Source of the DNA: an uncultured euryarchaeote
GTDB lineage: Archaea; Thermoplasmatota; Poseidoniia; Poseidoniales; Poseidoniaceae
Reading direction: 5' to 3'
NCBI GenBank assembly: GCA_937899865.1
Contig: CALBRH010000063.1
Location: forward strand, 64,001 to 128,000
DNA length: 64,000 nucleotides
Below are positions 52,843-55,594 of the stretch, piece by piece. Position 1 is the stretch's first letter; each line of letters starts with the position of its first letter. Below the pieces are notes generated by a model that was not told where the DNA came from, did no database searches, and worked only from the letters and a program-made list of their open reading frames with translations. A program made the position numbers and the translations under genes.

Positions 52843-55594
52843 AGAAGAAAATAATATTGAAGAAGACGGCCAAGCAACAGTTCAAGGGAACTTGCTTAAT
52901 CAACCATTAAATGAGGAATTGAAGACATCATACATCAATTATGCAATGTCGGTAATTATTGGTAGAGCTCTTCCAGATGCTAGAGATGGCCTAAAACCAG
53001 TCCATCGAAGAGTTTTGTATGGTATGCATGAAGGAGGCCATACATCTGATAAGAAGTTTAGCAAATCAGCTCGTTCTGTTGGTGAAGTTATGGGTAAATA
53101 TCACCCACATGGTGACCAATCAATCTACGATACCATGGTAAGAATGGCTCAGGATTTCTCCCTTCGTTATCCTTTGGTAGATGGACAGGGTAATTTTGGC
53201 TCAATCGACGGCGATCCTCCTGCAGCAATGCGATATACAGAAAGTAGATTAGACAAAATATCAAAACACATGCTAGAGGATATTGATAAGAAAACAGTAG
53301 ATTTCCAAGCCAATTTCGATGATTCGGAACAAGAACCAACAGTACTACCATCTAGATTGCCAAATTTAATTCTCAATGGTAGCGATGGTATTGCAGTAGG
53401 AATGGCCACAAAAATACCCCCTCACAATCTAACCGAGGTGGCTGGTGCAGTAAATCTTCACGTTAATACCATTATTGAGGAAGGAGTAGATTCAGATACA
53501 ATGCCAGATATTTCTATAGAAGAGTATATGGAGCACGTAAAAGGTCCTGATTTCCCAACTGGGGCAGGAATTCACGGAGTAGATGGAATCTATGACATGT
53601 ATTCTGGTGGTAAGGGCAGATTCCATGTTAGGTCAAAATGTGATGTATTAGATGATTCAAACGGTAAGCGTATTATCATCCATGAGATTCCATATCAAGT
53701 CAAGAAGGCAGATATGTTAGTCCATATTGCTGAGTTGGTAACCAAAGGCACTGTTATCGGAATAAGAGATATTCGTGATGAATCCTCTAAGGAAGGAATT
53801 AGGGTTGTTATTGAAGTAAAGAATAATGCAGATCCAAATGCAGTACTAAATCAGTTGTACAAATCCAGTAGATTGCAAGAATCTTACTCTGCAAATATGA
53901 TGGGGATACTTGATGGCAGACCAGTTCTGTTAACGTTGCCAGTAATGCTTCACACTTATGTCAAACATAGAGAATCGGTAATTGAACGAAGAGCCAAATT
54001 CGAATTAGAGAAAGCAGAATCAAGAGCTCATATTTTGGAAGGTCTTGTCAAAGCACAAGATAGAATTGATGATGTTATTGAGGTAGGTAAAGGTAGCGCA
54101 TCTAGAGAACAATTTGAGAGCGTGCTAAAGGGAGAAGAAACATTCCCAGGAATCGCGCCTTTTGATTTTACTGAACCTCAAGCAAAGGCAATTGCTGAAA
54201 GACGACTTTACCAATTAAGTAGATTAGATGTTGAAAAGGTTCAAAATGAATATTCAGAATTACAGGAAAAAATAGCAGATTTGAACGATATAATTTCCTC
54301 ACGACTTCGAAGGCTAACCATACTATTGGATGAACTAAATGAAATGGTTGAAAAGCATGGTGATGCGAGAAGATCATATATCGACCCTATGCCGCTATCA
54401 ATGGATAGAGAAGATCTAATTGAGGAACGTGCTATTGCTATTACTTTGAGTGAAGATAATTACATTAGACATCTTCCAGTTGAAGCATTTAGAGTGCAAA
54501 ACAGAGGCGGTAAAGGTCTCAAGGGTGTTACTACCAAAGAAGAAGACACACCTCAATTAATTATCACTTGTTTTAGTAAAGACAGATTACTAATCTTTAC
54601 CGATCAAGGTAGAGTATATGGATTGAAAGCTTGGGAGACACCTCTCGGTAGTAGATTGTCTAGAGGTGGCCATATCCGAAATCTACTAGAGAGTCTTAGA
54701 GAGGATGAAAACATAGTATCTATCTTGCCTGTTAGCAAAGATTTGTTAGAGAATCCAGCAGGTAACTACTTGTTGTTTGCTACCAAAAAAGGTCTAATTA
54801 AGAAAACTAAACTTGAGGAATATGTTAGAATTAATCGTAATGGAAAGTATGCCTTGAGATTCAAACTCGATGGTGATACATTGGTAAATGTTAGGTCTGG
54901 AACAGATATGTCAGATATTGTGATGATTTCAAGTACAGGATTTGCTAGTAGGTTTGCCTGTTCAGCAATTAGAGCATCAGGTAGAGTTTCAGGTGGGGTA
55001 TATGGAATTAAAACAGGAGATAGAAAAGGTGCAGATGGCGGACATGTAATTGCAATGATAGCCACGCATAATCCTGAAACCAACATCTTGACAGTTACTA
55101 AGAATGGAATGGCAAAGCGTAGTAGGCTTGGTACTGCAGAAAGATTACCGGTTTTGAATGAGGACGGTTCACATAAACTTCACAAAGAAACGAATGAGCC
55201 ATTGTTCAAAACAGATGGTTATAGAAAAACTAGACCAGGTGCAAAAGGTGCTTTCACAATGAATATCGATTCTGATGACGAAATAATTTCTGCAAAGCAT
55301 ATACCAGATCTTGGAGATAATTTATTCATATTAACCAAGAAAGGTATGATGATAAGAATCGTTGCAGGACAAACCAAAGATACCAAGACTAAGAAATCTA
55401 AAGGTACAAGAATTATGGAATTGAGAAACAAAGCAAGAGATGGCTTTACAGATGAAATAATTTTCACCGCAAGATTGCCAGCAGAATTACTTGAAGAAGA
55501 TCAATTCGACGAAATTGATGCAGATGGTGATGGAGTAATTAGTAGAGAAGAATTTGAGGCTGCTCAACAATCTAATTCATTTGAGGAAGAATGA
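52832..55594 (+). CDS. gyrA: DNA gyrase subunit A with EF-hand in C-terminal acidic tail
   Basis: [29 protein letters not shown] (catalytic Tyr), GyrA-box QNRGGKG. TTG start after GGAGGTG. Confidence 0.98.

Follow-up and report, generated by a model that had tools for sequence, protein, structure and literature searches.

A single canonical EF-hand in the acidic C-terminal tail of a Poseidoniales DNA gyrase A and its possible role as a calcium switch

Does the DNA gyrase of an uncultured marine archaeon end in a genuine EF-hand and, if so, what could such a module do there? The question is raised by a gyrA gene of a Poseidoniaceae genome, located in the 64,000-nucleotide stretch of DNA analysed here (the window, from whose first letter all positions are counted). 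An initial annotation of this DNA had noticed an EF-hand loop in the acidic tail of the encoded protein and proposed that Ca2+ binding could neutralise or dimerise the tail and thereby switch supercoiling.

At the protein level, the equivalog matches, the catalytic-Tyr motif, the GyrA box, the fold of the C-terminal domain (CTD) and the adjoining gyrB together identify a bona fide gyrase A subunit, as judged from its sequence. The gyrA gene (52832..55594, + strand) encodes 920 aa from a TTG start, as called by the ORF tool. Directly upstream lies its operon partner gyrB (50893..52842, + strand; 649 aa in the ORF list), which overlaps the listed gyrA start by 11 nt and whose translation, read by eye, contains the GHKL and Toprim motifs. 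The protein scored above the cut-offs of both NCBIfam gyrA equivalogs (NF004043, 940.9 bits vs. 902; TIGR01063, 911.9 bits vs. 877), and the scores of the ParC models on this GyrA stayed under theirs. Pfam DNA_topoisoIV and DNA_gyraseA_C matched too, the latter in seven stretches. From the translation we read the active-site motif with the catalytic Tyr (53222..53242, + strand; residues 131–137) and the GyrA box QNRGGKG (54497..54517, + strand; residues 556–562), a hallmark of GyrA CTDs that are competent for supercoiling; the stretch holding the box was invariant in 25 relatives. Pfam and the AlphaFold2 (AF2) model placed the C-terminal beta-pinwheel domain at 54434..55480 (+ strand; approximately residues 535–883). 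The AF2 model of this domain resembled the E. coli GyrA CTD (1zi0; TM 0.81 by target, E 2e-24) and also matched 9gbv and 3l6v, with E values from 1e-22 to 1e-24 over the three structures.

The pinwheel is followed by an acidic tail of 37 aa, with 15 acidic residues and 1 basic (55481..55591, + strand). Within it, all on the + strand, we located an entering (E) helix (55496..55516; residues 889–895, from AF2 DSSP) with Phe at −4 (residue 892) and Ile at −1, a predicted 12-residue Ca2+-binding loop (55517..55552; residues 896–907, from Pfam EF-hand_5 and EF-hand_1), and an exiting (F) helix (55544..55585; residues 905–918, from AF2 DSSP) with Phe at +13 (residue 908). The protein ends in EEE and a TGA stop (55583..55594, TGA at 55592–55594). 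The translation and Pfam confirmed the loop as first described, with D1, D3, D5, G6, I8, S9 and E12 between the two Phe residues. The tail sequence given at that time was exact too, and six further residues follow it, up to the terminal EEE. The AF2 model displayed a helix, a 9-residue loop and a helix, in which the F helix begins at loop position 10, its usual place in a canonical EF-hand, with a pLDDT of only ~60 over the tail.

Independent signatures agreed on the nature of this module. Pfam EF-hand_5 (PF13202) reached 27.4 bits on the whole GyrA (cut-off 25.9) and 32.8 bits on the tail alone, where EF-hand_1 (PF00036) reached 27.1 bits (cut-off 25.4); across the entire 2.0-Mb genome, the GyrA tail was the top EF-hand_5 match. 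The loop satisfies PROSITE PS00018-type criteria (oxygen ligands at positions 1, 3, 5 and 12, with Gly in position 6 and a hydrophobic residue in position 8), and a profile of GyrA tails matched solved Ca2+-binding EF-hands, namely E. histolytica CaBP1 (6e-11), lanmodulin, hippocalcin and calmodulin. We found no second EF-hand in the tail: it holds a single loop, and the EF-hand_7 pair model stayed under its cut-off. With ~6 residues separating the entering helix from the last pinwheel strand in the AF2 model, and ~10 after the exiting helix, there is no space for a hidden one. Thus, the predicted EF-hand is single, canonical and inserted in the acidic tail, after the last strand of the pinwheel and before the terminal EEE.

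We then considered how widely the module is distributed. Full-length tail matches were found in at least 83 of the 400 sampled Poseidoniales genomes, belonging to six genera of two families (38/61 genomes in genus g1, 21/24 in g14, 11/28 in g13, 11/22 in g11, 1/52 in g12, and 1/2 in g18). All 26 related module-bearing tails that we read were canonical at positions 1, 3, 5, 6, 8 and 12. Among the related tails that were aligned or counted, D1, D5, G6 and E12 never varied, and position 3 held either D or N. The Phe at −4 was invariant in 25 tails, and a Phe or Tyr at +13 with its subsequent Ala pair was conserved across the related tails; the conserved hydrophobic positions (−4, −1, 8 and 13) are consistent with the flanking-helix pattern of EF-hands. 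The initial annotation had allowed that the loop might turn out to be unconserved, random acidic low-complexity sequence; since this survey of Poseidoniales GyrA C-termini was positive, that is not what we found. The acidic end itself is more general: of the 30 Poseidoniales GyrA tails read in one set, 29 terminate in EEE and the other in DEE, GEE is the ending of some g11 tails, and relatives lacking the EF-hand have shorter acidic tails of 11–28 residues that are still EEE-terminated.

A genome search at the phylum level with the last blade and the tail (E <= 1e-12) retrieved matches solely in the Poseidoniales families f1 and f3, and none in 8 genomes of the same class or in ~230 others of the same phylum. 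A word-based search with residues 861–920, a method that misses divergent tails, returned 18 matches, all of them Poseidoniales-type GyrAs. When the last blade and tail were searched as a profile against 1.84 billion representatives, the best 150 matches were mostly multi-EF-hand proteins, with a few GyrA fragments.

In a GyrA tree of 50 genes, all the EF-bearing genes fell within one well-supported clade, and EF-less genes were nested among them. The trait requires at least nine state changes on this tree, eight of them forced by well-supported branches, and placing the EF-bearing genes in one exclusive clade was rejected (p-AU 1e-10). We found no decayed full-length copy of the EF-hand among the 50 genes: every gene was either canonical or deleted. 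The EF-less sisters look like deletions because they retain the flanks. The likeliest history from these sequences is one gain in Poseidoniales GyrA, followed by many in-frame deletions. As the module was lost repeatedly, it is dispensable and gyrase works without it; we infer that the EF-hand is an accessory regulator and not a core part of gyrase.

The closest points of comparison are two bacterial gyrases. In E. coli, the GyrA acidic tail (approximately residues 842–875) likewise follows immediately on the CTD beta-pinwheel; it controls DNA wrap, and efficient supercoiling depends on it (PMC11626157), in agreement with the effect on wrapping mentioned in the initial annotation. The E. coli K-12 tail has 36 aa, 19 of them acidic, vs. 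37 aa and 15 acidic in the archaeal tail, and both end in EEE. However, the tail of E. coli lacks both structure and a metal-binding motif, whereas ~30 of the 37 archaeal residues are predicted to form an EF-hand. Mycobacterium tuberculosis GyrA also presents a Ca2+-related motif, an EF-hand-like Ca2+ site at residues 504–516 whose Ca2+ removal affects activity (PMC3479174). As stated in the initial annotation, that site lies in the linker between the N-terminal domain and the CTD; it is a non-canonical loop-helix-loop-strand inferred from homology models, whereas the archaeal site is canonical and in the C-terminal tail. We also looked for a mycobacterial-type linker site in this GyrA and rejected it: the aligned stretch (approximately residues 516–528) has Ser and Ala, respectively, in place of the acidic residues at positions 1 and 12, and Pfam finds no EF-hand in it.

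Beyond gyrases, calmodulin, E. histolytica CaBP1, hippocalcin and sarcoplasmic CaBP have the loop chemistry and flanking-helix pattern in common with the GyrA tail. Calmodulin-type sensors and buffers, however, carry paired EF-hands in a stable four-helix domain, whereas that of GyrA is single and at the end of a 920-aa enzyme. Within the same lineage, other proteins bear EF-hand grafts, probably also in the cytoplasm. The window itself encodes an A-ATPase subunit I (AtpI) into which an EF-hand pair is inserted, as well as a stand-alone protein with an EF-hand pair, and lone modules occur on Poseidoniales membrane proteins. Like the GyrA module, these lone ones enter with Phe-x-x-Met/Ile, share the loop and exit with Phe-Glu-Ala-Ala. 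Unlike GyrA with its lone EF-hand, AtpI and the stand-alone protein each carry a pair, and none of the Poseidoniales grafts listed sits on a topoisomerase. Calcium-binding protein modules that are specific to the Poseidoniales families have been reported (PMC9258230). Neither the near-identical lone modules on other Poseidoniales proteins nor the repeated loss of the module from GyrA had been foreseen in the initial annotation.

At the functional level, we propose a Ca2+-dependent fold-switch in a regulatory acidic tail, an accessory device gained once and deleted many times, and we regard the chances of this mechanism as about even. The loop would bind Ca2+, since it has a canonical residue in every ligand position, down to the bidentate Glu in position 12. 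Upon binding, ~30 residues of the otherwise flexible tail would fold as a compact helix-loop-helix against the CTD, and this folding would alter the reach and the charge pattern of the acidic tail and the way in which the tail and its EEE tip dock. Because the E. coli acidic tail governs wrapping and the coupling of ATP to supercoiling, an EF-hand at this place would confer a Ca2+ response on wrap control, and the tail's control of wrapping and ATP coupling would become responsive to Ca2+ or to the Ca2+/Mg2+ balance. The site might also be constantly occupied given the millimolar Mg2+ of the cell. Neutralisation of the tail by Ca2+, as proposed at the outset, now looks weak: one Ca2+ cancels 2 of ~14 net negative charges, so a conformational effect is more plausible. 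We scanned four contrasts between EF-bearing genes and EF-less sisters for co-variation, and no column of the GyrA core or of the C-terminal 500 aa of GyrB consistently tracked the trait. With no co-varying or compensating residue in these regions, there is no sequence pointer to a docking site of the tail.

Other readings of the same tail must be weighed against this fold-switch. One is that the motif has no function and arose by chance, or as a neutral insertion, in low-complexity acidic sequence. The tail is indeed rich in Asp and Glu, DxDxDG-like strings are common in the large surface proteins of this genome, and the many losses indicate a dispensable module. However, in 200,000 shuffles of the tail's own composition, a PROSITE-type EF loop arose in 0.4% and the strict DxDxDGx[ILV]xxxE in 0.01%. 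Moreover, different genera conserve both flanking helices as well as the hydrophobic and Gly positions, although synonymous sites are close to saturation (pS 0.81): G6, R10 and A15 are each encoded by 4–5 different codons, and pN/pS was 0.23 for the EF-hand tail vs. 0.27 for the adjoining last CTD blade. The lack of decayed full-length copies among the 50 genes also speaks against chance, which we consider highly improbable; on these comparative data, the EF-hand is kept by selection. Such purifying selection on ligand and fold-determining residues would also suit a constitutive structural site, always loaded with Ca2+ or Mg2+, that shapes or lengthens the tail and has no signalling role. The module immediately adjoins the pinwheel, and EF-less relatives cope with their shorter tails; both points favour this reading. 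A mere spacer, however, would not need invariant canonical Ca2+ ligands across the sampled module-bearing lineages, frequent clean loss speaks against a structural requirement, and the other cytoplasmic EF-hand grafts of the lineage fit signalling better. We therefore hold a purely structural site to be unlikely.

The third reading concerns partners. EF-hands normally work in pairs, and the lone EF-hand of GyrA could pair with another one, on a second gyrase or on a different protein, and so cluster or localise gyrase, with or without dependence on Ca2+. Other Poseidoniales lone EF-hands match the GyrA tail at per-genome E values of 1e-9 to 1e-14, vs. ~1e-5 for generic EF-hands. Some of these modules stand at the N-terminus of small membrane proteins (L056–L058); one is in a zinc-ribbon, EF-hand membrane protein (L059) of a genome (G121) whose GyrA carries the module too, and another in a zinc-ribbon protein (L060). 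However, the small membrane proteins were seen in genera g7 and g10, where no sampled GyrA carries the module, so partnership between them and the GyrA tail is not obligate. Our searches found no close lone paralogue in this genome, and the other match shown for it is a 2,745-aa frame with several calcium-binding loops, probably extracellular. The initial annotation had suggested either another EF-hand protein or the second GyrA subunit as the partner. For the former, we found no lone EF-hand partner in this genome, where the other EF-hands are paired or multi-loop in large surface-like frames. The latter looks unlikely as well: the two CTDs lie on opposite sides of the gyrase holoenzyme in E. 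coli cryo-EM structures, and the AF2 model, with its entering helix ~6 residues past the pinwheel, makes pairing of the tails within one holoenzyme sterically improbable. A tail-tail dimer prediction (two 48-aa tails, a 25-row alignment and two Ca2+) scored 0.23, the mark being 0.42, and we count it neither for nor against pairing. Docking through EF-hand pairing seems to us improbable, and the fold-switch within a single tail is the reading that we carry forward.

Regarding novelty, a literature search on EF-hands, gyrase or GyrA, and calcium retrieved the M. tuberculosis site only, and no paper was found combining DNA gyrase, Archaea and Poseidoniales. EF-hands, calcium and an acidic tail go unmentioned in a paper on archaeal gyrase evolution and in a review of archaeal DNA topology. 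To our knowledge, and in the literature searched, this would be the first canonical EF-hand on the tail of a type II topoisomerase. If the fold-switch holds true, a tail with a ligand-switchable fold would be a natural tool for probing the coordination of the DNA wrap with the ATP cycle by the GyrA acidic tail, which is an open question for gyrase (PMC11626157). Closely related EF-less orthologues, with 81–86% identity across the full protein, offer ready controls, and the idea is testable although the organisms are uncultured, because recombinant protein suffices.

Poseidoniales rank among the most abundant archaea of the plankton, and the seawater that they inhabit contains ~10 mM Ca2+. Together, the EF-hand of GyrA and the EF-hand pair of A-ATPase subunit I suggest cytoplasmic Ca2+ signalling in this order. 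A bolder reading, which we put forward tentatively and hold to be possible rather than probable, is that gyrase senses Ca2+ directly in many Poseidoniaceae and one genus on the Thalassarchaeaceae side, with Ca2+ at the tail EF-hand toggling the hold of the acidic tail on wrapping. Supercoiling would then follow cytoplasmic Ca2+, as one arm of a lineage-wide grafting of EF-hands onto central machinery that includes gyrase and A-type ATP synthase subunit I. If true, this would reveal a Ca2+ signalling layer in abundant, uncultured marine archaea.

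At the gene level, the window carries gyrB (50893-52842, + strand) head to tail with gyrA (52832-55594, + strand), whose 920-aa product is a bona fide GyrA. It scored above the cut-off in both curated gyrA equivalog models, and the ParC models stayed below theirs. Read from the translation, the catalytic-tyrosine motif occupies residues 131-137 and the GyrA box residues 556-562. The AF2 structure prediction for the last 399 residues matched solved GyrA C-terminal domains, the best being E. coli 1zi0 (TM 0.81 by target, E 2e-24).

The acidic tail of this GyrA holds a canonical, selected, and lone EF-hand. 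Beyond the last strand of the C-terminal beta-pinwheel domain (CTD), the tail runs for 37 residues and includes 15 acidic residues and one basic residue. The sequence is exactly as the initial annotation described it: a 12-residue loop (residues 896-907; 55517-55552, + strand) with three Asp (positions 1, 3, and 5) plus Gly6, Ile8, Ser9, and Glu12, flanked by Phe at -4 and +13. Pfam EF-hand_5 reached 27.4 bits on the full protein (cut-off 25.9); when the tail was searched alone, EF-hand_5 scored 32.8 and EF-hand_1 27.1 bits. This tail is the top EF-hand_5 match of the whole 2.0-Mb genome, and a profile built from the tails matches EF-hands of solved Ca2+-binding proteins, among them E. histolytica CaBP1, lanmodulin, hippocalcin, and calmodulin. 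AF2 predicted a helix (889-895), the loop, and a second helix (905-918) with a pLDDT of only ~60 there, and the exiting helix begins at loop position 10, like in real EF-hands. The tail contains one EF-hand only: the model places ~6 residues between the last pinwheel strand and the entering helix and ~10 after the exiting helix, leaving no space for a hidden cis partner.

The EF-hand of the GyrA tail is real and conserved. When the tail composition was shuffled, a PROSITE-type loop appeared in 0.4% of the trials, and the strict motif in 0.01%. We sampled the tails of 30 relatives' gyrA genes, plus 15 short tail loci and 20 full-length genes. In the survey of Poseidoniales GyrA C-termini that the initial annotation had proposed, the module was canonical in 26 of 26 related module-bearing tails at six loop positions (1, 5, 6, and 12, plus 3 as D/N and 8 as I/V), an invariance that is partly built in because these tails were chosen by their likeness to the module. 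All of them also kept Phe at -4, Met/Ile/Leu at -1, Phe/Tyr at +13, and two Ala residues at +15/+16. Synonymous sites of the module are near saturation (pS 0.81), and its codons vary across relatives (all four for Gly6, five for Arg10, and four for Ala15). Its pN/pS of 0.23 is as low as that of the adjacent CTD blade (0.27). Even the weakest HMM matches, from genus g13, proved canonical, and no decayed full-length module was seen among 50 gyrA genes.

We searched 400 Poseidoniales genomes with an HMM built from ten tails, counting full-length matches that end frames of ~920-943 aa. Within Poseidoniaceae (f1), the module was found in 38 of 61 genomes of the window's own genus (g1), 21/24 of g14, 11/28 of g13, 1/52 of g12, and 1/2 of g18; in the other large family (f3), genus g11 carried it in 11 of 22. 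The total of ~83 out of 400 genomes is a lower bound because many MAGs are incomplete. Among individual loci, the gyrA of genome G020 (C5:309780-312575) matches as three consecutive pieces in different frames, which represents a frameshifted gene or a MAG assembly error, and a TGA lies within the tail match of genome G102 (C72).

On a maximum likelihood tree of 50 tail-trimmed GyrA cores, one well-supported clade holds all EF-bearing genes, with the basal f3 genera and g15 outside, and EF-less genes are nested among the EF-bearing ones. The trait requires at least nine state changes, eight of them forced by branches with SH-aLRT ≥95. An exclusive EF-bearing clade was rejected (p-AU 1e-10). In the EF-less sisters, the residues on either side of the module are still present, separated by an in-frame gap of ~50-60 nt. 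The module has been repeatedly and cleanly lost from GyrA tails, and the simplest history is one gain followed by many deletions. Some exchange of gyrA or its tail among Poseidoniales is also likely. Across the 50 loci, the tree is discordant with genus and family labels (g1, g12, and g13 are split; g11, g3, and family f2 are nested in the f1 clade), which suggests either gyrA exchange or binning/taxonomy problems. In a g18 gene (L041, G342:C74), the tail shares 86% DNA identity with the window (70% at third positions), and the last CTD blade only 55% (45%). In this small sample, it is a hint that recombination can move the tail module between genera.

The GyrA of the window combines a regulatory-type acidic tail with an EF-hand. 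The E. coli tail is unstructured, governs DNA wrapping on the CTD, and is required for efficient supercoiling; how this tail is linked to the ATP cycle is recognised as an open question (PMC11626157). In E. coli K-12 (L061:294-473, - strand), it spans 36 aa, 19 of them acidic, and ends in EEE. The archaeal tail is likewise acidic and EEE-ending, and the module is best regarded as an EF-hand insert in a tail of the E. coli regulatory type. Nearly all the Poseidoniales tails that we read are short, acidic, and EEE-ending, with or without the module; the exceptions at the tip are DEE in one tail and GEE in some others. This tip is common to E. coli K-12 and nearly all the Poseidoniales genomes read (gyrA loci L001-L030 and L062-L081), whatever separates it from the CTD, and might have a function of its own in acidic GyrA tails.

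Regarding Ca2+, M. tuberculosis GyrA has a non-canonical EF-hand-like motif in the linker between its N-terminal domain and CTD (PMC3479174), the only gyrase Ca2+ site reported in the literature searched. The equivalent stretch of the window GyrA has no acidic residue at position 1 or 12 and no Pfam match; thus, the tail EF-hand is distinct from the mycobacterial site and differently located. Neither of two papers, one about archaeal gyrase and the other about DNA topology in archaea, mentions an EF-hand, calcium, or an acidic tail. We found no description of a GyrA-tail EF-hand in the searched literature, although automated annotation flags PF13202 on several of these GyrAs in the precomputed Pfam column of a protein database.

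At the functional level, we propose that the tail EF-hand would bind Ca2+ and that binding would induce a disorder-to-order change. Once ordered, the tail with its EEE tip would interact differently with the CTD or GyrB, shifting DNA wrapping and the supercoiling set point. No co-varying site that would mark a docking surface was found in the GyrA core or the C-terminal part of GyrB. The initial annotation also considered neutralization of the tail by Ca2+; this idea is weakened, since one ion cancels only 2 of ~14 net negative charges and a conformational effect is more plausible. A constitutive structural metal site is a rival to such a switch, whereas the conservation of the module effectively excludes a neutral motif.

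Another rival is that the EF-hand serves for docking or pairing. The partner first suggested for the lone EF-hand was the second GyrA subunit or another EF-hand protein. Tail-tail pairing inside one A2B2 holoenzyme would have to bridge the two CTDs and, judging by known holoenzyme structures, is unlikely. For the other option, no lone paralogue was found in a search of the window's genome (G000), where the remaining EF-hands found are pairs or multiple loops in large surface-like frames. Other Poseidoniales do have lone EF-hands whose similarity to the GyrA tail far exceeds that of generic EF-hands. Near-identical modules form the N-terminus of small membrane proteins, followed by transmembrane helices, in L056 (G173:C49), L057 (G128:C18), and L058 (G231:C8, two adjacent genes); they come from two genera, g7 and g10, in which the sampled GyrAs are EF-less. 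L059 (G121:C4:111000-113000) encodes a membrane protein that starts with two zinc ribbons and also has EF-hands, long acidic repeats, and transmembrane helices; its lone module is almost identical to the tail of G121's own EF-bearing GyrA, and its orthologue in the window's genome (C51:79537-81738, - strand) has several EF-hand pairs instead. A G301 zinc-ribbon protein also has a lone module. These look-alikes make the GyrA module a portable, lineage-specific lone EF-hand and leave docking or pairing as a less probable role; however, the pattern of co-occurrence gives no support to an obligate partner.

The window's genome contains many other calcium-binding loops. Frames of 1,000-3,300 aa with repeated DxDxDG-type loops are frequent on its contigs C3, C25, C44, C50, C51, and others, and probably encode surface proteins. 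Within the window, the partial A-type ATPase subunit I (Pfam V_ATPase_I; 1-2172, + strand) has an inserted EF-hand pair at residues ~282-338 (EF-hand_1 29.1, EF-hand_5 27.2 bits), making it a second core machine of this genome with a grafted putative Ca2+-binding module. A stand-alone EF-hand-pair protein of 369 aa (31695-32804, - strand; EF-hand_5 30.1 bits) continues into a long acidic region. Family-specific protein modules with calcium-binding domains have been described in Poseidoniales (PMC9258230). Taken together, grafting cytoplasmic EF-hands onto core machinery seems habitual in this lineage, and the natural EF-less relatives provide built-in controls for the putative function of the GyrA tail.
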